A stretch of DNA of 32,000 nucleotides from Candidatus Saccharimonadota bacterium (GTDB lineage Bacteria > Patescibacteriota > Patescibacteriia > 2-12-FULL-60-25). Position 1 is the stretch's first letter, and every line of letters starts with the position of its first letter. The stretch covers positions 450,001-482,000 of the forward strand of contig OY970357.1 of the NCBI GenBank assembly GCA_963718585.1, given 5' to 3'. Shown in pieces: positions 24 through 30,165 of the stretch. The position numbers and the translations under genes were made by a program. Below the pieces are notes generated by a model. The model had not been told where the DNA came from. It made no database searches and saw only the letters and a list, made by a program, of their open reading frames with translations.

Positions 24-97
24 TCGGGGATCGTCTAATGGTAGGACAGCTGACTCTGAATCAGCCAATCTAGGTTCGAGCCCTAGTCCCCGAGCCA
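24..97 (+). tRNA. tRNA-Gln (anticodon CTG), CCA encoded
   Basis: Hand-folded cloverleaf: acceptor tcgggga 24-30 / tccccga 87-93; D arm 33-47; anticodon stem 49-53/61-65 with 7-nt loop ctCTGaa (anticodon 56-58). 4-nt variable loop; T arm ctagg-ttcgagc-cctag 70-86; discriminator g94; cca 95-97. Confidence 0.9.
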
Positions 98-100
98 AGG

Positions 101-133
101 AAAACACACCGTCGCAAAATGGTGTGTTTTTTT
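101..133 (+). terminator. Rho-independent terminator after tRNA-Gln
   Basis: 10-bp stem aaaacacacc (101-110) / ggtgtgtttt (121-130) followed by ttt. The A-run/T-run flanks make it potentially bidirectional. Confidence 0.6.
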
Positions 134-239
134 ACGGGACGGGGGCTCGAACAGGGAAAGGGTGAAAACGGAAGTGTTCACATGGTGAGGAGGGTCTGCG
201 GGAACCCGAAGGTTCCCGCAAACGCGAAGCGTGAGAGAT
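134..239. other. tRNA-linked conserved two-hairpin module, copy 1 (function and strand unknown)
   Basis: Aligns with 28893-29003. Shared blocks: gg[c/a]tcgaac, gggaa(a)gggtgaaa, ttcac, tgaggagggtct, cgggaacccgaaggttcccg. Hairpin H1 162-181 (gtgaaaac-ggaa-gtgttcac) and hairpin H2 198-219 (gcgggaacc-cgaa-ggttcccgc). No ORF is conserved between the copies. Confidence 0.6.
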
Positions 240-293
240 GCCCTAGTCCCCGAGCCAAGGAAAACACACCGTCGCAAAATGGTGTGTTTTTTA
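240..293 (+). repeat. Direct repeat of tRNA-Gln tail (T-loop end to CCA) plus its terminator; non-functional tRNA fragment
   Basis: 240-292 is identical by eye to 80-132 (53/53). It lacks the 5' two-thirds of the tRNA. Confidence 0.9.
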
Positions 294-2332: not shown

Positions 2333-2977
2333 TCAGCCTTCGTTTTTGATGATATTTTCGACCGCAGCCCACTTGGAAGGGGCTGCTTTTGGGATCAATA
2401 AGACCGCTTCGTCTGCGACGTTTCCACGATGAAAGGTCACGGCCGCGGTCAGGACACAGTATTTCTTTCCGCCGGCGATGACACGCCATTCGTTGGTCAT
2501 CTCATCCCGCGTGAGCGTTCCCACGACACGCTGTCGCTCGATCGGTCCGATCTGTTTGTAGAGGAATGTTCCATTCGGCTGGATCGTCAACTTCAAGATA
2601 TCTCCTTCGACCAGCTTCGATTTAGACGCATAATTCGGCGGAACGACATACTGTCTCCCATCTGAACCGATCATGTTCTGTCCATCGAAGACCCCTTCGA
2701 GGATCTTTCCTTCTCCGGCCGGGCCGAGCATCTGTCCCTCATCTGTCTGATGGCGCTTCATCAACGCTTCCAGATCTGCGGGCTCTGCCTCACTCGTCAA
2801 AAGTCGTTCAAGATTTGCGATCTCCTCTTTCAATCGATCCAAGATCTTTTTTGCCAAAATGAATTTCGTTTCGGTGGCGGTCACCGAAGCGGTCAATTCA
2901 CTGGCGTTGGTTCCCTCGCTTGGCTCCAACGCATCCTTTTCTTCCTTCTGTTTTGGCATTGGTTTGGTTTTATCCAC
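2333..2977 (-). CDS. Hypothetical protein: N-terminal coiled-coil, C-terminal beta-rich domain
   Basis: 214-aa ORF with GTG start at 2977; alternative ATG at 2959 (MPKQKEEKD). No family recognised from the sequence. Confidence 0.6.
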   Translation of the reverse strand: MDKTKPMPKQKEEKDALEPSEGTNASELTASVTATETKFILAKKILDRLKEEIANLERLLTSEAEPADLEALMKRHQTDEGQMLGPAGEGKILEGVFDGQNMIGSDGRQYVVPPNYASKSKLVEGDILKLTIQPNGTFLYKQIGPIERQRVVGTLTRDEMTNEWRVIAGGKKYCVLTAAVTFHRGNVADEAVLLIPKAAPSKWAAVENIIKNEG

Positions 2978-2982
2978 AATGG

Positions 2983-2991
2983 ACTATACCA
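2983..2991 (-). promoter_or_regulatory. Extended -10 element TGGTATAGT
   Basis: Minus strand tggtatagt lies 5 nt upstream of GTG 2977 and 23 nt upstream of ATG 2959, in the 32-nt gap after the upstream stop codon. Confidence 0.4.
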
Positions 2992-3009
2992 CACCCATCA
3001 AAAAACCAC

Positions 3010-5586
3010 CTAGAGGTCAAATCCCCCTGCTTCATCCCCGGCCTCGATCGCCGTGCGTTTTTCCGCAAGTTCTGCCTCGATCAATTGCCTCTTCCGACCG
3101 TATTTATAGCGTGAAAGTTCATGGATCATCTGAGCCAATTCCTTGTTTTCAGGTCTCTGAGGCATGATCGGTTTGAAATTGAACGGACGGGAGCCGGTAT
3201 TCTCTATGAGCAGTTTGATGTTCGCTGTATACGCCTCGACGTTCACCAGATCGTTGACATTGAAGACAGGGGCGAATTCTTTTTCAAGGAATTCCGCGTC
3301 TTCGACGCCTATCCGGAATGAGACCATGGTCCCGACATTACCGAAGATCGAATCCCGGATCTTCGTGTCCCCGCCCGGTCCGGTCAGCTGACCGATGAAC
3401 TGATGCGCGATGATCAAGTTCAATCCATATTTTCGCGCCTCAGAAAGGATCGCGTTGATCGAATCGGTCAAAAAGTTTTGGAACTCATCAACGTACAGGT
3501 AGAAGTCCTTTCGTTCTTCCGGTGGAAGCTCCGCGCGTCGCAATGCGCCATCCAGAAGCTTTCCGATGATGATCATGCCGAGAAGGTACGCATTCATGTC
3601 CCCGACCTTCCCCTTGGACAACTTCACCAAAACGATCTTTTGTTCGTTCATGGCCGTATACAGATCGAATGCGCTCTTTTGCTGACCGATGATCGGCCGC
3701 ATGTAGTCATTGTAGATGAATGATGCGAGCTTGGACGTGATATACGGCACCATGTTGGCCAACGACGACTCCCCTCCTGCCTTGAGCGCCTCCTTGGTCC
3801 AGAAGTCGCGGACTTCCTGTGACTTGCATTTGGACAGCTTATAGTTGCGGTAATCGTCATCGGCGAGCACGCGCGGGATGTCCATGAGCGTATTCCCGGA
3901 TTCCGTATCATCCATGTTCAACAAGATCGCATTCCGCATGTACGTCTCGAACATCGGACCGCCGGTGGATTTCAGGTCATACAATTTATCGAAGATCTTC
4001 AACATCTCATTGATGACGAAGGTGCGCGTTTGCGGACGCTCCTCATCGTATTCAAGCATGTTCAATCCAAGGGGACGTTCCGTGTCCGCCGGATCGAAAT
4101 AGATCACATCATCCGCTCGTTCCTTCGGTACATATTCCAGGCATTCGTCCACAAGATCTCCGTGCGGATCGATCACGCACACCCCGCGCCCGGCTTCGAT
4201 GTCCTGTTTGATCATGGACGCTTGAAAGACGGATTTTCCAGAACCGGACTTTCCGATCACGTACATGTGCCTTCGGCGATCCTGCGCTTTGATACGGACC
4301 TCGTATTTGTGACCTCGGTATTCGGAAAGTCCCAGAAGCAACCCCTCTGTCGGCAGATTGGAAGGAGGAAGTGCCTTGCGTGAAAGAAGCCAGTTGATCT
4401 TCGGCGTCTCGGTCGTGGGCAGTGGAAAATGATACAACGACGCAAGCTCTTCACTGTTCAATGTCAGTTTTTCCCGTTCATCAAAGTGGCGGTAAATAAA
4501 ATGCCGGATCATCTGCGTCTGGAACGACGGCGTATGCTTGATGAACGAGTTCCCGTATTCGTAGATATTGTATTGGCCGTATGCGCTCAAAATATCGTTC
4601 AGATATCGTTTAGCTTTTTCCGGATTGTTCGATGACGCGATGATGCGGATGTTCACATCTAACCCTGCTTTAGACGCCTTCTCTTCCAGTCCTTTGATCA
4701 TCTCCTCTTCAAGTGGCGATAGGCGATAGGCTTCACTCTCTTTCTTTGTCCCCGGTTTTGCTGCCGATGCCATGCTCGAAAGTTCTTTTCCAACAGATTT
4801 CAGAAGCTTTCCCCCACCCTGCACCTGTGAAAGTTTCTTTCCCTGCTGCATTTCCCGTGCGATCCGCGTGCCTTCGCTTCGCCAGCCTGAACGGGCGCTC
4901 CGTACGACGTATTGCACTGCGACTCCATCCAGATCATCGACTTTTGAAAGGGCATTCGTGATCGAATTCAACGGATCTGATTCCAATTTCTCGTATGTCT
5001 TGATCGGGAAGGCACTTGAACGACGCAGTTTGAGATAACTGCCCATGACCACGCCGGTCGCGGCGAACATGTTGTAATCCGCGATCTCCTCAACATCCGC
5101 ATGAGGGAATTGTGCATGGATCTGCTCTTCTACGAATTGCCGGTATCGATCCGGAATGACGACATAGAAAGATATCTTCGCGTGATGTGAAACGATCTCG
5201 AATGAGAAGTTGTCTTCGCGGCCTTTCAGCCACGTCATAAAGCCTTTTTGTGCCTTCAATGATCCAAGCGTCGAGAAGATCGTTTCCATCACGGAAATGA
5301 GTTCCTGTATCTGTTGTGTGGATTTTGAGCCTTCGGAATCTTCTTTTCGGACCTCTTTCGGCACGCGAACGGACAAAACCTTCATGCCAAAGGCGAGCGA
5401 GGCGCGTCCCCGTCTGATGTACAATCCTCGGATCAGATACAGGATCACGGTCACGCCGATCCCGATCCCGATAAGTGTCAAAACGAGCAGGACGATGGGG
5501 TCGGAAATGAACGCACCGAAATCAAAGATCTGTCCCGCGGAGCCACCGGAGGTCAGATCGAGTTGAAAGACGAAAAACGGCATCAT
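3010..5586 (-). CDS. Membrane-anchored VirD4/TraD/TraG-like (type IV coupling protein-like) P-loop ATPase
   Basis: N-terminal TM helix (PIVLLVLTLIGIGIGVTVILYLI). Walker A GKSGSGKS, Walker B LYVDEFQNF, downstream IIAHQFIGQL. Overall architecture typical of TraD/TrwB-type coupling ATPases. ATGA overlap with the upstream gene. Confidence 0.75.
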   Translation of the reverse strand: MMPFFVFQLDLTSGGSAGQIFDFGAFISDPIVLLVLTLIGIGIGVTVILYLIRGLYIRRGRASLAFGMKVLSVRVPKEVRKEDSEGSKSTQQIQELISVMETIFSTLGSLKAQKGFMTWLKGREDNFSFEIVSHHAKISFYVVIPDRYRQFVEEQIHAQFPHADVEEIADYNMFAATGVVMGSYLKLRRSSAFPIKTYEKLESDPLNSITNALSKVDDLDGVAVQYVVRSARSGWRSEGTRIAREMQQGKKLSQVQGGGKLLKSVGKELSSMASAAKPGTKKESEAYRLSPLEEEMIKGLEEKASKAGLDVNIRIIASSNNPEKAKRYLNDILSAYGQYNIYEYGNSFIKHTPSFQTQMIRHFIYRHFDEREKLTLNSEELASLYHFPLPTTETPKINWLLSRKALPPSNLPTEGLLLGLSEYRGHKYEVRIKAQDRRRHMYVIGKSGSGKSVFQASMIKQDIEAGRGVCVIDPHGDLVDECLEYVPKERADDVIYFDPADTERPLGLNMLEYDEERPQTRTFVINEMLKIFDKLYDLKSTGGPMFETYMRNAILLNMDDTESGNTLMDIPRVLADDDYRNYKLSKCKSQEVRDFWTKEALKAGGESSLANMVPYITSKLASFIYNDYMRPIIGQQKSAFDLYTAMNEQKIVLVKLSKGKVGDMNAYLLGMIIIGKLLDGALRRAELPPEERKDFYLYVDEFQNFLTDSINAILSEARKYGLNLIIAHQFIGQLTGPGGDTKIRDSIFGNVGTMVSFRIGVEDAEFLEKEFAPVFNVNDLVNVEAYTANIKLLIENTGSRPFNFKPIMPQRPENKELAQMIHELSRYKYGRKRQLIEAELAEKRTAIEAGDEAGGFDL

Positions 5587-6104
5587 GGTTGGTTCATTGC
5601 TTGTTCTTTGCGTTCATCGACCAGCGCTTCAAGGAGATCGATCTTCAACTTAGCCTGCTGTTCCAAAAAGAATCGATTGACGCCAGGGATCGTCAAAAGC
5701 CAGTCACGAACGAGGCGGAGTGCGCGGCTGAATTTCAACTTGAACGAACGGACCATTCCAGAGATCTCGGTCGCTGCTTCTTCTCCCTTTTTTCTGAATT
5801 TCTCCTTTGCTTCCGGTGGAAGTTGCGCATAGAACTCACCAAGGTCCTTTTCGAGGATCTTTTCGACCTCGAGCGTCACTTCATCCTTTTGGACGATCGG
5901 CGTCGCCGGTGCGGATGTCGGAACCCCTTCGATCTCTTTGGTCAATTCAACCTCGGTCGTCTTCCCCTCCTCTTCTAAGAACGTATCTTTCCGTTCCGGA
6001 AGGTTCTCGTAGGTCTTTTCATCTGCCTCAACGCTGGACACTTCCTGTGTTGGAAGTGCCTCAAGATTCGGGTTCTCCAGACCCCCTGGTTTGATGCCGG
6101 GCAT
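5583..6104 (-). CDS. Hypothetical acidic protein, translationally coupled to the T4CP-like ATPase
   Basis: 173-aa ORF with E/K-rich N-terminal half. Its stop overlaps the downstream ATG (ATGA). Confidence 0.6.
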   Translation of the reverse strand: MPGIKPGGLENPNLEALPTQEVSSVEADEKTYENLPERKDTFLEEEGKTTEVELTKEIEGVPTSAPATPIVQKDEVTLEVEKILEKDLGEFYAQLPPEAKEKFRKKGEEAATEISGMVRSFKLKFSRALRLVRDWLLTIPGVNRFFLEQQAKLKIDLLEALVDERKEQAMNQP

Positions 6105-7590: not shown

Positions 7591-9687
7591 TCATTTGACC
7601 TTCGCTTCCAACGCACTCACTCTGGCGTTTAGATCATCAAGCTGTGACTTCAGTGAATCGTTCTGTGCTTTGAGTTCTTTGATCGAATTCAACATGGTCC
7701 AGATGATCGGATCATTGTTCACTGATAGATACCCATTGCTTTCCATGGTCACGGCTTCCGGGATCGCCTGCTGAACGTTTTGGGCAATGACCCCGACATG
7801 ATTTTCTGTCGAGAATCCGATCGGGTTGTCCTTTTTATAACTGAAATTGACCGTATTGATTTTCATCAAGTCCGATAATCCGCGGTCGAACGTACCGTGG
7901 ATATCCTTCAAACGCGCATCGGAATACACGCCCCAAGACCCTCCACTCGGTTTATATGCGTTCCCACCAACGAGGTTGAGGTCACCCGTCGATCCTTTTA
8001 TCCAGATCCGATTACCTGATCCGCTCGGCGGGAAGATCTCCATGTCGCCGCTATTATTCGTGTCTAGTTGGAAATTGTATGCGCCATTTGGAGACACGAG
8101 TTTCGTGTAATTCGGGATCAGTACTCCACCGCCATAATTCACCGTCAAAGCAGGGTTTTTCCCTGGATTTCCGACGTTCAGGTCCCCCGTCGATCCATTC
8201 GTCCAGATGTACGCTTTTGTGGCCCCATCCTGACGAAAATGGATCGCTGGGTTTCCGCTTCCGGTGTGATTCAGGATCATCACTGGATCAGTGCTAGCCT
8301 CCAAATACGTCTGACCGCTTCCGTAGACTCCGTACCCGCTATATCCAAGGTATCCGTACGAGCCGGTATTGACGTTATAGCCATAAACTCCGGCGGTCAG
8401 CCCTGACCCATAAATTCCCATTGAATTCCCGTTTCCTACAACGCCATATGTATAACCGGTAAACGAACCCCCAAACGGTCCTCCGTTTCCTTGGACGCCG
8501 TAATAACCCGACGCAACCACTCCAGCATCGCCTGGGTTCGCGCCACCATAAAGTTCGGCGCCATTATATTTTCCTTGGCTCCGAATTCCGTTCCAATTCG
8601 TTGAGCTAAAGAATCCACCATAGCCATTTGTCGATTGACCGTTGATCGCATACGTTCCGCTTCCGATGATCGCGCTGGTTCCTGAGGTATGATAGACCTT
8701 GATCCCAGTACTTTCGCCATATGATCCATTTGCAGTGAGATCAAGGGCGTAACAATTGCCGCCTGCGTTAAGAGAATCACACTCGCCCATGGCACCCGAG
8801 CCGCGTTGGTTCGTTGTGCCTGGCGTGTTTTGGGCAAACCCGATGACCGTCTCCGAGTTGTTCAATCCTGTATTCGGATTGATGACCAGGGATCTATCCA
8901 CGTTTCCATTGTACTGGGAGTCGACATAGATCGCATTTGCCTGCGGGTTCACCGTATTGTTCATCCTGATCTGCAGTGCATTGGTTCCAACGTTCCCGCT
9001 GACGGCCGCTGTCAGGAGCTTGATGTTCCTGCCATTAGTCTGATCTTTCGTCTCAAGGAACGAGTTATTCAACGGAGACATGAACGCACCTGATTGAAAG
9101 ACAGAACCTGCTTGGCTATATCTGAAGTTGGTTGAGACATCCACCCCTTTTTGCGCGATCAACTGACCGGTCATCGTGTCACCTGCCTTGAGGACGTAGG
9201 TTCCCGCACCACCCCCACCCGCCTGCGTCCAGTCTGTGATGCAATCGTTGCTGATCCCGTTCACTGCAGGATCAAAACAGAACTTATACGCTTGCACGCG
9301 GCCATCTTCACCGAGGATAGCGTTCGGAGATGCGATTTGTGTCGTTTTAACGCCACCGGTCACGGCGAACGTTAACGGTTTCGCCGTGCCCCCATACCAG
9401 TTACCCATGTTTAGAGAAGCGGAGCCACTATAATCAACCCTAATAGCTTTACCGTTCGTTAAGCCTATGTCACTCAAATAATTAGGGCCACCTGAATAAG
9501 GAATTCCGAAATTGATTTTTGCATCCACTTGTTGAGCCGAAGTGCCTTTTACGTTCCATATTACTCCTGGAACATTCCCACTAGGCGGTTGATTCGTTGG
9601 ACCAGCGAATTGCGCATATGCGAGCGCTGGGATGGCAAGTACTCCAATTACTCCAAATACTGCTGTTCGAAGATGAACGCGTTTCAT
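7591..9687 (-). CDS. Secreted phage-tail-fibre-like protein with C-terminal Peptidase_S74 / intramolecular chaperone domain
   Basis: C-terminus YSDARLKDI...HVGVIAQNVQQAIPEAV...SVNNDPIIWTMLNSIKELKAQN plus a coiled coil matches the endosialidase/tail-fibre chaperone domain. Tail-fibre motif GDTMTGQL and long G/Y/N-rich repeats. Start chosen at ATG 9687 (MKRVHLRTAVFGVIGVLAIPALAYA, a Sec-type signal peptide) rather than the 801-aa ORF start. Confidence 0.75.
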   Translation of the reverse strand: MKRVHLRTAVFGVIGVLAIPALAYAQFAGPTNQPPSGNVPGVIWNVKGTSAQQVDAKINFGIPYSGGPNYLSDIGLTNGKAIRVDYSGSASLNMGNWYGGTAKPLTFAVTGGVKTTQIASPNAILGEDGRVQAYKFCFDPAVNGISNDCITDWTQAGGGGAGTYVLKAGDTMTGQLIAQKGVDVSTNFRYSQAGSVFQSGAFMSPLNNSFLETKDQTNGRNIKLLTAAVSGNVGTNALQIRMNNTVNPQANAIYVDSQYNGNVDRSLVINPNTGLNNSETVIGFAQNTPGTTNQRGSGAMGECDSLNAGGNCYALDLTANGSYGESTGIKVYHTSGTSAIIGSGTYAINGQSTNGYGGFFSSTNWNGIRSQGKYNGAELYGGANPGDAGVVASGYYGVQGNGGPFGGSFTGYTYGVVGNGNSMGIYGSGLTAGVYGYNVNTGSYGYLGYSGYGVYGSGQTYLEASTDPVMILNHTGSGNPAIHFRQDGATKAYIWTNGSTGDLNVGNPGKNPALTVNYGGGVLIPNYTKLVSPNGAYNFQLDTNNSGDMEIFPPSGSGNRIWIKGSTGDLNLVGGNAYKPSGGSWGVYSDARLKDIHGTFDRGLSDLMKINTVNFSYKKDNPIGFSTENHVGVIAQNVQQAIPEAVTMESNGYLSVNNDPIIWTMLNSIKELKAQNDSLKSQLDDLNARVSALEAKVK

Positions 9688-9695
9688 ACTTATAA

Positions 9696-9704
9696 AGTAT
9701 ACCA
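9696..9704 (-). promoter_or_regulatory. Extended -10 element TGGTATACT
   Basis: Minus strand tggtatact lies 8 nt upstream of ATG 9687 with no SD, consistent with a leaderless transcript. Confidence 0.45.
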
Positions 9705-9710
9705 TAGTGT

Positions 9711-9759
9711 TAAAAGAAAAAGCCCCACACCTCTTCGCTTGCGCGTAAGATGTGGGGCT
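9711..9759 (-). terminator. Rho-independent terminator after the frameshifted lipoprotein gene
   Basis: 9-bp stem agccccaca 9721-9729 / tgtggggct 9751-9759, followed on the minus strand by ttttctttta. Confidence 0.6.
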
Positions 9760-9775
9760 AGGAGACGCAATTGCG

Positions 9776-11645
9776 TCAGTTGCAGTTCGCTGTATAGAAG
9801 CCTGCCAATGGCGGGGCGATATGAACGAAGTGAACGGTCTGACCATCCGGCTCCGTCCAAAACTGCACCGCACTATAGGCCTTTGAATCGACCTGTGCAG
9901 TGACTGTCTGATTGACCTGATCCATGGTCGTGAGGCGCAGGATCCCGGGAGCACCATTGTTCCCTTCGTTCCCCGCGGCCAACGCCACGCCGGCACGCGG
10001 CGACCAAACGGGGTAGTACCCCCCGATCTGAGTGGCCGCGAACTCTGTCCACGTCGCCATGTTATTGGTTACGTGGTAGATGACACCTGCTCCGTCGTTC
10101 CGGCTTCCCGTCACGAACAGATCGTTGATCGACGTCCCAGAGATCGACTGGAATGACACCGCATCAGCAGGGGCATTCGCAGCTAGACCAGCTCGAACCA
10201 TTCCAGATCCGCAGAAGCGCCTTGTTGGGGTCCGACCTCGATCCCGCATCCGTAGTGACGAGAATGTCCTCCTCACCTGTCACGAAGACATGTGAGGCAT
10301 CCAAGCCCCAAACGTGGAAGTAGTGTCCGTACCCTGTCGAATAACCCTGGTAAGCCGGTGTTCGACCAGCTAGATCCTGATTTCCTCCAAAGGTAGTTGA
10401 CGGAGCTCTTATCGCCAAGGAGGTAGACGTTCCCGTTCACTCCCCAGACGTCGTGTACTCCCAGGCGTATGGCCTTGGTGAGTCCGCGACCCAAGACCCA
10501 CCGGTGTTGTGGAACACCTGCGCACCGATGTAACCGAGGTTACCGTCGCCCGTGGCGGCTACCCAGATGTCATTGGGGCCGGAGCCCCAGATGCCCGCTA
10601 CCTTGGCGGCGCCGGGAAGGTCTTCCTGGCTCCAGGACGATCCGTTCCAGTGCGCGATCTGACCGAAGTCGTACGTCGCCGTCGTCACGTAGATGTTCGA
10701 GGAACTCGTTCCCCAGACACCACCGACGAGCGAAACGTCGTAACTTCCTTGCGCCAGGTCGGTCTTCCACGAAGGCGTGGACAGCTTGAGCGCGTCGAAC
10801 GATGCTCGATCGGGTCCAGGTTCCGCAGGAGAATGGCTGAGGGGTCGAACCCCCCGAACCACCTGCGCCGGCGCTTCCGCCCGTTCCAGCCGTACCACCG
10901 GTACCAGCACCACCATCGGACCCGGCGCTTCCGCCAGTCCCTCCGGTGCTACCCGCACCAGCCATACCGCCCGTACCGGACGTTCCAGCTGTACCGGCTG
11001 AACCAGCACCGCCGTCGGTTCCTGCGGTTCCTCCGGTCCCGGAGGTTCCTGCAGTGCCCGATGCACCCGCTGTTCCGCGAGCGTGAGCCACCAGTCGGAG
11101 TGCCCCAGACCGGACACGCCGCCCGAACCAGACGTTCCTCCGGTCCCGGAGTTGCCTCCGGTGCCAGACGTTCCCGCTGTTCCACCGACACCAGATGTGC
11201 CGCCTGAACCGGAGACGCCGCTTGATCCGCCCTGACCCGAGCTTCCGCTCGCGCCTGATGAACCTGCGAAGCCGCCCTGTCCGGCCGTGCCTGCACCACC
11301 ATCGGCGCCAGCTTGGCCTGCAGCACCTGAGGTGCCGCCGGTCCCAGCGTCGGTTCCAGCTGTTCCGCTCGTGCCGCCCGTTCCCGAGCCGCTTGCGAAA
11401 CCGCCTGTTCCTGAAACGCCGCCGGTACCACTGGTACCTGCCGCGCCCGATGTGCCGCCCACGCCGCCTCCATCAGGAAGCTGACAGCTGGGATCTGACT
11501 GACACGTCGCACTGCCGTAACCACCGGATCCCGACACTCCATTCGGAGCCGGATCGTTACCACCGCAAGCGATGGCAAAGAGAGCCGACAGCAAGGTCAC
11601 CACGACCCGGCTGTCGAGCCAGTGGGTGTTCTTCCTGCTGTTCAT
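9776..11645 (-). pseudogene. Frameshifted Gly-rich lipoprotein with repeated beta-propeller-like blades
   Basis: N-terminus MNSRKNTHWLDSRVVVTLLSALFAIAC (signal plus lipobox-like). The repeated blade pattern (h-WG-x5-hyV-G ... WNGSSWS) continues across four ORFs in three frames: 10437..11645, 10273..10494, 10164..10418, 9776..10276. Frame changes near 10485, 10348 and 10183. Confidence 0.65.
10842..11468 (-). repeat. Low-complexity GC-rich coding repeat (GTSGTGG-type Gly/Ser/Thr/Ala linker)
   Basis: Translation is runs of G-[TSA]-[SAG]-G-[TSA]-G-G. It is open in nearly all six frames. The same peptide pattern continues in a second frame between about 11095 and 10850. Confidence 0.6.
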
Positions 11646-26949: not shown

Positions 26950-27519
26950 TTACGACCGTCTTGAGAGTTCATATCGAATGTCTTCGATCTTCCGAAGATG
27001 CTGGCGCGCCTGATCGCCCTTCGCCCGTAGCGGACCCGTCAGATCAAGCGAGGTGAGGAACGAGACGATCTCATCTGCTTTTTTCACGATCCCATTCACC
27101 GCATCGACCCGACCATCCGTCGCCTCCCGGACCGATCGACGGACCAGTTCTCCGACAAAATCAGATAATGCGCCGATCGCCGTGTCCGGCGCCATCTTCA
27201 TCACGCGTCGGAATGCCTTTTGGTCCTTCGTGACGAACGCATGGACCAAAAGAGCTTCTGCAAACTCCTCGCATCCCGCGTGCCACGCGCCGACTTCCTG
27301 AAGATCCGCGTTGCGTTCGATCAGTCTCCATCCCTTGGCATAGATCGTTTCCGCGCTCCGGAGCTCTGTGACGGCAGAAGCACCCCGCTGCATGGCGAAG
27401 ATCGATATCTTCGAAAGTCGTGTCAGTTCACCACCCAACGCCTGCAGTTCCCTCCGCGCGCCTTTCATCGTGTTGTATCTGCGTGATAGTGCCGTGAAGA
27501 TCGGTGATGATCGTTTCAT
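26950..27519 (-). CDS. Translin-family-like protein
   Basis: 189 aa, all-helical. The C-terminal part SDFVGELVRRSV...LDLTGPLRAKGDQARQHLRKIEDIRYEL parallels the translin blocks DYLxGxxxLxxELxR ... LNLKNDxLRKRYDxLKYDxKKxEEVVYDL. ATGA overlap with the upstream GT gene. Confidence 0.5.
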   Translation of the reverse strand: MKRSSPIFTALSRRYNTMKGARRELQALGGELTRLSKISIFAMQRGASAVTELRSAETIYAKGWRLIERNADLQEVGAWHAGCEEFAEALLVHAFVTKDQKAFRRVMKMAPDTAIGALSDFVGELVRRSVREATDGRVDAVNGIVKKADEIVSFLTSLDLTGPLRAKGDQARQHLRKIEDIRYELSRRS

Positions 27520-28781: not shown

Positions 28782-28857
28782 CGCGCCTGTAGCTCAGTGG
28801 TAGAGCAGTGGCCTTTTAAGCCAATGGTCGTGGGTTCGATCCCCACCGGGCGCACCA
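28782..28857 (+). tRNA. tRNA-Lys (anticodon TTT), CCA encoded
   Basis: Acceptor gcgcctg 28782-88 / cgggcgc 28847-53; D arm gctc-agtggtta-gagc; anticodon loop ctTTTaa (anticodon 28815-17). Variable loop tggtc; T arm gtggg-ttcgatc-cccac 28830-46; a28854; cca 28855-57. Confidence 0.9.
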
Positions 28858-28860
28858 AAT

Positions 28861-28890
28861 AAAGATCCCTGCCAAAATGCAGGGATCTTT
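28861..28890. terminator. Hairpin terminator after tRNA-Lys
   Basis: aaagatccctg - ccaaaatg - cagggatcttt: 11-bp stem with A/T arms. Confidence 0.55.
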
Positions 28891-28892
28891 AT

Positions 28893-29003
28893 GTAGAGGC
28901 TATGGGATCGAACCAAGGGAAGGGTGAAACCGTCAGGTTTCACTGTTTGAGGAGGGTCTACGGGAACCCGAAGGTTCCCGTAAGAGGCCGAAGGTCGAGC
29001 GAA
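28893..29003. other. tRNA-linked conserved two-hairpin module, copy 2 (function and strand unknown)
   Basis: Aligns with 134-239. H1 28924-28943 (gtgaaacc-gtca-ggtttcac); H2 28960-28981 (acgggaacc-cgaa-ggttcccgt). The 36-nt block tgaggagggtct-N-cgggaacccgaaggttcccg-N-aa differs from copy 1 only at the two N positions, which pair with each other. Confidence 0.6.
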
Positions 29004-29094
29004 ATCCCCACCGGGCGCACCAAATAAAGTCCCTGCCAAAATGCAGGGATCTTTATGTAGAGGCTATGGGATCGAACCAAGGGAAGGGTGAAAC
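29004..29094 (+). repeat. Direct repeat of tRNA-Lys tail (T-loop to CCA), terminator and first ~38 nt of the module
   Basis: 29004-29094 equals 28839-28930 except for loss of one a (28865). Weaker similarity to module hairpin H1 continues to about 29103, into the murG stop codon. Confidence 0.9.
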
Positions 29095-29103
29095 GGTAGG
29101 ACT

Positions 29104-30165
29104 TCATTCGATGATACCCATCCATCGTTCTGCGAGCGCTGAGCCGTTGTCCGTTGGAAAAAGATCGTGCAGGCTCTGGCCAAGTTTCTCCTGTCGCTCA
29201 CGATCATCCAAAAGTCCAATGACCTGATCGCGAAGGTTCGCTTCAAACGACGAAGACGTTTGATCCAACATCACGACCCCCTCTTTCACGCGTTCCGCAT
29301 TCGCTTCCTGATGTGATCCCGGGATCGGAATGACGACAGCCGCCTTTGAGAGGGCTGCGAGTTCTGACACCGTGCCGATCCCCGCACGGGAGATGACGAC
29401 CTCGGCCACCGCATAGGCATCACGCATCTGCCGTTCATCAAAGTCCTCATGCGTCATATATCCTGATGCCGGCTCATTCACGGCCTTTCCTTTTCCGGTC
29501 AGATGGATGATCTGAGCATACTGCAAGAGATCCCCCTTGATCCGCTCCAATGCGTGGTTCAACGCGAGGGCACCGGTCCCGCCACCGAACACAAAGACCG
29601 TTTTCCGCTCCGGATCTAGATCCAACCGTTTTGCCGCATCGCGTCGATCCGTCACGTGATCATCATTGAAACGGCACGGTGTCGCGATCCGCGACGCGGA
29701 AACGCCTTCAAACGGGGAACGATCGTACGCGAATGAGGACGTGACACACGCGCAGCCTCGGGCGACGCGACGGTTGGAAAGACCCGGTTCCGCATCTAAC
29801 TGATGGATCGCGGTCTTGATCCCGTGGCGCTGAGCCTCTTTCATGACCGGAACCTCGGTGAATCCGCCGGCTCCCACGACCAGATCAGGTCGTTCGTGCG
29901 AAAGGATCTCTCCTGCCATGCGACGCGCATGCTTGTAATCACGCAGGAGTGTCAACCATTTCAACGTCGGATATCTCGGAAATTTCACGACCGGGATCGA
30001 GTGATACGGAATATGTTCTGACTCGATCACCGGGGCCTCGGGGCCGGAGGGCGTCCCGACCCAAGAGATGGCGACATCCGATCTTTGTCCGCGCATCCGG
30101 CGTACGACCGCCAACAACGGTGTCACCGGTCCGAGCGTTCCTCCTCCGCAAAACAAGATCCGCAT
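29104..30165 (-). CDS. murG: Undecaprenyldiphospho-muramoylpentapeptide beta-N-acetylglucosaminyltransferase
   Basis: MRILFCGGGTLGPVTPLLAV N-terminal G-loop; C-terminal VISRAGIGTVSELAALSKAAVVIP. Position after ftsW. Start at ATG 30165. Confidence 0.88.
   Translation of the reverse strand: MRILFCGGGTLGPVTPLLAVVRRMRGQRSDVAISWVGTPSGPEAPVIESEHIPYHSIPVVKFPRYPTLKWLTLLRDYKHARRMAGEILSHERPDLVVGAGGFTEVPVMKEAQRHGIKTAIHQLDAEPGLSNRRVARGCACVTSSFAYDRSPFEGVSASRIATPCRFNDDHVTDRRDAAKRLDLDPERKTVFVFGGGTGALALNHALERIKGDLLQYAQIIHLTGKGKAVNEPASGYMTHEDFDERQMRDAYAVAEVVISRAGIGTVSELAALSKAAVVIPIPGSHQEANAERVKEGVVMLDQTSSSFEANLRDQVIGLLDDRERQEKLGQSLHDLFPTDNGSALAERWMGIIE

Follow-up and report, generated by a model that had tools for sequence, protein, structure and literature searches.

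The 53-nt direct repeat at the tRNA-Gln gene near the start of the window (the whole 32,000-nt stretch of DNA analysed here) is real, and is part of a new family of structured modules located behind tRNA and tmRNA genes. Segment 80-132 is identical to 240-292 at all 53 positions, with a spacing of 160 in our repeat search of the window, bearing out an initial claim, made from the letters alone, that the two agree without a mismatch. ARAGORN and Rfam place two tRNA genes in the window, tRNA-Gln(CTG) and tRNA-Lys(TTT) (Table 1), and with tRNA-Gln placed at 24-97 the repeat begins at T-loop position 59 and continues through the 3' strands of the T-stem and acceptor stem, CCA and the terminator, as this sequence-only reading had described it. 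The repeat therefore reflects the presence of the tRNA tail, here together with the terminator, once in the gene and once as the 3' arm of the module. The 107 nt between the repeat copies (133-239) align with 28893-29003 behind tRNA-Lys, as had been stated for some 106 nt of them, and the two modules share a common 32-nt block with 31 identical bases, which is absent elsewhere in the window and of which no occurrence is expected by chance. Three features had been listed as not fitting a classical attL/attR footprint, namely an insert of only about 0.1 kb, no ORF conserved between the copies and the inclusion of locus-specific terminator sequence in the repeat, and we judge all of them correct. 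Literature searches turned up no description of modules appended to tRNA genes that combine an antisense arm to the cognate T-loop with a copy of the tail, and the family is apparently undescribed.

Table 1. Positions of the tRNA genes, terminators and module parts in the window
Feature	Position	Strand	Evidence or remark
tRNA-Gln(CTG), intact, CCA encoded	24-97	+	ARAGORN; Rfam tRNA 61.4 bits
Repeat copy 1, tRNA-Gln positions 59-76 (80-97) and terminator 1 (98-132)	80-132	+	
Terminator 1 of tRNA-Gln	stem 101-110/121-130, T-run to 133	+	
Antisense arm	135-152	+	Exact complement of tRNA-Gln T-loop/T-stem (GTTCGAGCCC) at 143-152
G-rich strand, AGGGAAAGG	153-161	+	RNAfold; RNAalifold helix 1
Hairpin 1, GTGAAAAC-GGAA-GTGTTCAC, GNRA-type loop	162-181	+	8/9 pairs covary in family
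Near-invariant single-stranded GAGGAGGG, Shine-Dalgarno-like	187-194	+	Family alignment
Hairpin 2, core CGGGAACC-CGAA-GGTTCCCG at 199-218 and two covarying closing pairs	197-220	+	
Small hairpin 3, ACGC-GAA-GCGT	222-232	+	Other members have a longer, variable hairpin
Conserved junction GAGAGAT (family consensus GTGAGA), directly 5' of tail copy	233-239	+	Family alignment
Tail copy, sense copy of tRNA-Gln positions 59-76 including CCA	240-257	+	
Terminator 2 of tRNA-Gln	258-292	+	Identical here to terminator 1
tRNA-Lys(TTT), intact	28783-28857	+	ARAGORN; Rfam
Terminator 1 of tRNA-Lys	28858-28892	+	Stem 28859-28872/28879-28892
Second full module	28893-29003	+	Covariance model 93.5 bits
Antisense arm of tRNA-Lys module, GGGATCGAACC	28904-28914	+	
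Hairpin 1 of tRNA-Lys module	28924-28943	+	
GAGGAGGG of tRNA-Lys module	28949-28956	+	
Hairpin 2 of tRNA-Lys module	28961-28980	+	
tRNA-Lys tail copy (29004-29022) and terminator 2	29004-29057	+	
Truncated third unit, antisense arm and degenerate first hairpin only	29058-29106	+	Direct repeat, 94% over 77 nt

A scan of metagenomes keyed on the 20-mer of hairpin 2 returned at least 120 loci, and the whole module architecture is present in 22 independent metagenome contigs among the matches listed, most of the listed 20-mer matches being unrelated terminators. With a covariance model derived from 17 copies, true members score 46-118 bits (complete ones 55 bits or more) and unrelated hairpin-only matches no more than 33 bits; the model finds exactly two copies in the window. 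The sequence-only reading had proposed using such a model to see whether hits always follow tRNA genes; every copy with upstream sequence does follow a tRNA or tmRNA gene, 38-63 nt past its 3' end and on the same strand. It had also proposed a comparison with Rfam, in which the module matches no family at the gathering threshold: when Rfam 15 was run only the tRNAs reached that threshold, with no ribozyme, intron, T-box or tRNA-like match to the module. Perfect identity over 53 nt could stem from collapsed or expanded repeats, yet misassembly, or local tandem duplication by chance, is very unlikely, to the point of being negligible, because the same architecture recurs in the 22 independent contigs, from many samples, as well as at both window loci. 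Scanning genome contigs with the left half of the conserved block, GAGGAGGGTCTNCGGGAACC, gave just four chance matches, and the metagenome pattern combining hairpin 1 with GAGGAGGGTCT gave none.

Modules are 110-190 nt in size with a core of about 75-100 nt. From 5' to 3', family members comprise the tRNA or tmRNA gene, terminator 1, a spacer of 5-25 nt, the antisense arm, the G-rich strand (consensus GGGGGAT), a core of hairpin 1, unpaired GAGGAGGG and hairpin 2, then either AACGTGTGAGA or GCGCAG-hairpin 3-GAGCAGTGAGA, and finally the tail copy (T-stem 3' strand, acceptor 3' strand, discriminator and CCA) and terminator 2. In the roughly 15 complete loci only the module lies between the tRNA and the tail copy. 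Terminator 2 is often unrelated to terminator 1 (L025, L027, L061 and L123), and the terminator within the window repeat is therefore a local, probably recent feature. Indeed, most family members repeat the tRNA tail alone, a point missed by the sequence-only reading, whose suggestion of a structured RNA gene duplicated with the tRNA tail nonetheless comes nearest to the evidence. The hosts placed in the Patescibacteria are those of the window and of one other locus, the GC-rich L110, assigned by EF-G; the best matches to the DnaX of the window are from Patescibacteria/Uhrbacteria at no more than 64% identity, and an exact look-up of its DnaX and CysS gave no record.

Several of the matched loci merit separate description. 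In L024 (oriented, 445-1040) a tmRNA gene is followed by a complete module whose tail copy is that of the tmRNA 3' end, and then by a second, diverged and partial unit with a different hairpin where hairpin 2 would be, so the family is broader than the exact search 20-mer. The repeated unit in L075 (oriented, 1-480) is about 330 nt long, an extra segment of about 130 nt (containing ggactagattctaggtactagactctagattctagg) separating the tail copy from the antisense arm that follows. In the tRNA-Ser module of L038 (oriented, 3030-3310), inserted hairpins totalling about 100 nt separate the antisense arm from hairpin 1, and the tail copy matches the T-stem of the adjacent tRNA-Ser, not the acceptor strand; this module may be a decaying copy, or may derive from another tRNA-Ser. 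In L010 (376-460) and L013 (2030-2110) the hairpin-2 20-mer is followed by tandem units of about 20 nt (ATGAAACCCGAAGGTTCCCG and variants) that have no relation to the tRNA module. This 20-mer, CGGGAACCCGAAGGTTCCCG, also occurs between A- and T-runs in L012, L018, L021-L023, L028, L033 and about 40 further listed loci, where it appears to be a bidirectional terminator beside a conserved gene end (containing CATTGCCTTACAAGCGAATCAGCGTGGAAACGCTGG); these contigs are unrelated to the module family, with an identical hairpin in a different context.

The core is a conserved fold. In the family alignment the share of paired cells is 96.6%, compared to 85.2% in shuffles, and the pairing score collapses in a control in which partners are slid by one to three columns. 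Both-sided changes occur in eight of the nine pairs of hairpin 1, the loops of which are often of the GNRA type, while hairpin 2 is invariant only because it was the search key, its two closing pairs covarying. The G-rich strand covaries with unusual T-stems in the tail copy (L098 and L027), which speaks for a tail copy built into the fold and against a free guide; in the tRNA-Gln copy, RNAfold and RNAalifold pair the first four nucleotides of this strand, AGGG (153-156), with CCCT at the start of the tail copy (241-244), forming a predicted T-stem mimic, P1. Coding potential was considered and rejected: both strands are open in both window copies, but stem substitutions are compensatory and the length of hairpin 3 varies. 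A degenerate tRNA was found on neither strand by ARAGORN or Rfam, and a hammerhead-like CUGANGA motif is unconserved across the members of the family alignment.

Both ends of the module are fitted to the adjacent tRNA. The antisense arm, a match absent from the sequence-only reading, is an exact Watson-Crick complement, over 9-14 nt, of the T-loop of its own tRNA and the stem bases next to it. Averaged over 16 loci, its longest exact match measures 9.6 nt against the cognate T-arm and 6.4 nt against the T-arms of other tRNAs (permutation P<5e-5). It also tracks unusual T-loops, with ATTTGCA opposite TGCAAAT in tRNA-Cys and ATTCGGA opposite TCCGAAT in tRNA-Lys, and at tRNA-Gln residues 135-142 extend it as an inverted repeat of imperfect complementarity reaching back to about tRNA position 71. 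Among the 19 loci with upstream sequence, the tail copy is identical to the tail of its gene in 17, the exceptions being L038 (diverged) and L121 (truncated), and it has no CCA where the gene has none (L092 and L106). In the retrieved DNA a second tail copy accompanies all ten module-bearing tRNAs and none of 18 others, and other tRNAs on the same contigs are without a module. The antisense arm covers tRNA positions ~51-63, including the start of the tail copy, and the sense tail covers 59-76, so that the arm is complementary to both sides of the 58/59 junction, as a group I guide would have to be. An origin by reverse transcription of a mature tRNA was rejected, given the tail copies without CCA at L092 and L106 and the inclusion of the terminator in the window copy.

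The best explanation, which we put forward tentatively, is a family of tRNA-fitted modules expressed by read-through as a tail-swapped RNA. While the architecture is observed directly, we infer the tail-swap mechanism from predicted folds. No promoter-like site was found upstream of the module and read-through of terminator 1 is therefore assumed: the module would be made, on the plus strand, by transcription continuing through the tRNA terminator, the strand being likewise an assumption. In such a transcript the antisense arm would capture the T-loop of the tRNA, and the tail copy would pair with the G-rich strand as a T-stem mimic and take over the 5' acceptor strand, giving a tail-swapped cloverleaf in which the module core replaces the T-loop and whose tRNA-like 5' and 3' ends would confer tRNA processing and stability on the module. 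We folded the sequence from tRNA +1 to the tail-copy CCA for eight loci, and in all eight predicted minimum free energy (MFE) folds the tail copy is the partner of the 5' acceptor strand, the antisense arm is that of the T-loop region, leaving the original tail and terminator 1 looped out, and the G-rich strand and tail copy form the T-stem mimic that closes the core; all three tRNA-matched segments would thereby gain a role. The refolded state is predicted to be 3-14 kcal/mol more stable than the best fold with a normal acceptor stem, in an energy model without tertiary structure, modification or co-transcriptional folding, and this gain would follow partly from the complementarity itself.

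The predicted chimeric RNA of ~235 nt would resemble tmRNA and tRNA-like structures in joining an acceptor stem and CCA end to a large structured insertion, and would differ from tmRNA in that the insertion takes the place of the T-loop and is attached to ordinary tRNAs with a range of specificities as well as to tmRNA. The RNAs derived from tRNA 3' external transcribed spacers, such as 3'ETS-leuZ of E. coli, are similarly produced from a tRNA trailer and depend on the tRNA promoter, but they precede the terminator and have neither tRNA-matched arms nor a conserved multi-hairpin core. As modelled, tail-swapping would leave the purpose of the chimera and the role of GAGGAGGG unexplained, and it gives no route by which the arm and tail of a new tRNA are acquired. 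Terminator 1 of tRNA-Gln looks strong (10-bp stem, T7), which counts against read-through. The module could be either useful to the cell or a selfish hitch-hiker, and we keep both readings.

The distribution of the modules also weighs against tail-swapping, since core subfamilies that follow lineage, copy-number differences between strains, contig breaks and common truncated copies are typical of mobile repeats. An empty site, which the sequence-only reading had suggested seeking, exists at an orthologous tRNA-Pro: L128 (empty) and L110 (filled) are identical through the tRNA and its terminator, after which L110 continues with an antisense arm, core, tail copy and second terminator, so that the filled site equals the empty one plus module, tail and terminator. 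As tail and terminator are duplicated, this comparison fits new DNA entering on either side, and it is equally silent on the side of entry when an intron at tRNA position 58/59 is considered. In a distant relative sharing the cysS-dnaX synteny, tRNA-Gln is followed by a terminator and by no module. Additional truncated or degenerate units lie 3' of terminator 2 in the window (tRNA-Lys), L080, L075, L121, L112 and L024; at tRNA-Lys the repeat is accordingly longer than at tRNA-Gln, 28839-28942 matching 29004-29106 and comprising the tail, the terminator and ~50 nt from the start of another, truncated module. L092 and L037, from related strains, differ in copy number, a shift which under the tail-swap model would occur via recombination between tail repeats. 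Contigs end inside the module at L026, L037, L087 and L092. Core subfamilies track genome lineage and not tRNA identity, the tRNA-Gln and tRNA-Lys cores of the window being closer to each other and to L106 than to that of L123, which is also at tRNA-Lys.

These observations favour a strong rival, close to the non-autonomous, target-duplicating element listed in the sequence-only reading: a non-autonomous site-specific mobile element whose folded core serves as scaffold for an enzyme encoded elsewhere, which we regard as possible, if on the doubtful side. Candidate enzymes would be an IS110-type recombinase with a bridge-like RNA, an IS200/IS605-type single-strand transposase, a Cas1-like integrase or a reverse transcriptase. 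The arms would then read the tRNA gene, the antisense arm on the top strand at 51-63 and the tail copy on the bottom strand at 59-76, and the repeat of tail plus terminator would be a long target duplication made on insertion. Consistent with this, modules are present or absent at orthologous tRNAs, occur in arrays with decayed distal copies, vary in number between related strains and break contigs; cores are near-identical across tRNAs within one lineage but differ between lineages by numerous compensatory changes; in the window, L032 and L112 the repeat extends from position 59 to where the terminator T-run ends; and tmRNA is targeted too. The two arms also jointly span the T-loop-to-3'-end segment of tRNA genes, which integrases are reported to favour.

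Several results argue against mobility of this kind. Pfam identified no integrase, transposase or reverse transcriptase among the window ORFs, no TnpA or TnpB ORF in the window and, in the window ORFs and L121, no DEDD/RuvC-like recombinase gene near the module, leaving no candidate enzyme in the window or adjoining any copy. Copies are without cargo, terminal inverted repeats or short constant target duplications, and neither scans of viral contigs nor BLAST of the module against phages, or of a Clostridiales-2-like consensus against phages and plasmids, gave a real match. As noted above, the G-rich strand covaries with the tail copy, which gives the latter a structural role rather than that of a free guide, and the tail copy still equals the tRNA tail despite ~20% divergence of the cores, which points to selection and not to passive duplication.

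Among known RNA-guided systems, the bridge (seek) RNA of IS110/IS1111 elements is similar in being one folded RNA with two segments potentially pairing with opposite DNA strands, overlapping by a few bases, and in having no promoter in the integrated state. On paper, the arm (51-63) and tail (59-76) have this opposite-strand guide geometry, although the tail copy also pairs inside the fold. The modules differ from bridge RNAs in that no DEDD recombinase is nearby and no second (donor) loop was identified, and in their much longer arms (about 12 nt and 16-18 nt) and a long tail duplication in place of a 2-nt core. Miniature IS200/IS605 elements and TnpB omega-RNAs differ from the module in that the latter shows a duplication and has no TnpA/TnpB ORF. 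A guide equal to the tail would, we infer, also match the adjacent intact tRNA gene and thus be self-targeting, and a TnpB/Cas12-type guide with the T-loop as adjacent motif was rejected for targeting that neighbouring gene and for the absence of such genes.

The sequence-only reading had put forward a decayed, CIME-like remnant of a tyrosine-integrase element directed at T-loops, with the tails as attL and attR; this is largely refuted and we give it very little credence. The likeness lies in a direct repeat running from the T-loop through the tRNA 3' end, the classical footprint, in the range of typical targets (many tRNAs and tmRNA) and in a presence that varies among relatives. Against it, an integrase, cargo or larger version occurs at none of ~20 loci (Pfam on the window ORFs and L121, and the layout of complete loci), the integrase-bearing full-length copy it had envisaged being among the forms sought at these loci, and the insert is a covarying single-strand fold of ~110-190 nt. 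Each insert carries a tRNA-specific antisense T-loop arm, which attP arms leave unexplained; usually the tail alone is repeated, and at the junction of module and tail, GTGAGA(NN), there is no T-stem-5'-like core site and hence no pair of inverted core sites.

A trans-acting small RNA made from the tRNA trailer and acting on the cognate tRNA or pre-tRNA is, in our view, unlikely. Such an RNA could be a sponge or regulator, a guide for a T-loop-directed enzyme or the supplier of a replacement 3' end, its antisense arm opening the T-arm while the tail copy competes for the 5' acceptor strand. The exact cognate antisense and sense segments, kept despite core divergence, would suit this role, as would the module's own terminator, GNRA-type loops and conserved fold. 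Engineered trans-splicing group I ribozymes consist of an antisense guide, then a core, then a replacement sequence, and the module shares this layout. However, modules follow only some tRNAs, are absent in close relatives and follow tmRNA too, decayed copies are frequent, the module matches no ribozyme family in Rfam, and we know of no bacterial machinery for RNA-guided tRNA modification or tail exchange.

We consider a more specific proposal quite improbable, namely that the module is a small RNA which replaces or provides the 3' tail of the cognate tRNA, possibly as a catalyst itself or with help from a ligase or nuclease of the host. The arm would be an internal guide across T-loop positions 58/59, the purine-rich core an active scaffold and the tail copy a replacement 3' exon. 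This would follow the logic of group I introns, since the tRNA around 58/59 and the first bases of the tail copy are both possible pairing partners of the arm, and trans-splicing group I ribozymes likewise combine an antisense guide over the junction, a structured core and a replacement 3' sequence. The module differs in its core of only about 75-100 nt and the absence of a conserved terminal G, and catalysis would be purely hypothetical; Rfam Intron_gpI, used to look for the conserved P3-P9 catalytic core, gave no match to the module at E up to 10.

The only likeness to a catalogued RNA that we noted in the core is to RF02937 (Clostridiales-2, a candidate sRNA), in which a G-run, a hairpin, an unpaired AGGAGGG and a hairpin occur in the same order. 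The diverged members L092 and L025 score 24.7 and 21.4 bits, respectively, in the same register, compared to a gathering score of 58.6, and the window copies gave no match at E up to 10; the resemblance is thus weak and sub-threshold.

If confirmed, the modules would represent a widespread class of structured elements in a major and poorly understood bacterial lineage, with each copy individually matched to its tRNA by two segments, one antisense and one sense. As an RNA device they would offer a new route to remodelling tRNA transcripts; were the tail-exchange reading true, the acceptor ends of tRNAs in Patescibacteria would be repaired or taken over at the level of RNA. As a mobile element they would reveal a new base-pair-guided targeting of tRNA genes, relevant to the old question of why mobile DNA is drawn to the 3' ends of tRNAs, and possibly to tools for programmable insertion. 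Since modules mimic att sites and tRNA fragments, they can mislead the annotation of genomic islands and tRNAs, and they can break assemblies.

Some features of the surrounding DNA are recorded here in their own right. At 302-323 on the minus strand a terminator-like hairpin, GACCGCGG-CTCCGA-CCGCGGTC with a T-run, serves the convergent ORF 322-696; it directly abuts terminator 2, and the module therefore occupies the entire gap between two convergent transcription units. The housekeeping genes of the window include dnaX, cysS, dnaK/dnaJ/hrcA, an ABC exporter and glycosyltransferases. A block at 2333-6104 and 7591-9996, syntenic with cysS and dnaX in relatives (L005-L007), encodes a DUF87/TraG-like ATPase (858 aa), two small uncharacterised proteins and a Peptidase_S74-domain protein, and resembles a conserved secretion- or conjugation-like module amid housekeeping genes. 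Finally, a Translin-family ORF (Pfam PF01997) lies at 26950-27519 on the minus strand, 1.2 kb from tRNA-Lys and its module, and a homologue of 36% identity is found at 8653-9225 in L123, 7.6 kb from the tRNA-Lys module of that locus; in eukaryotes, translin-TRAX is a tRNA-processing nuclease.
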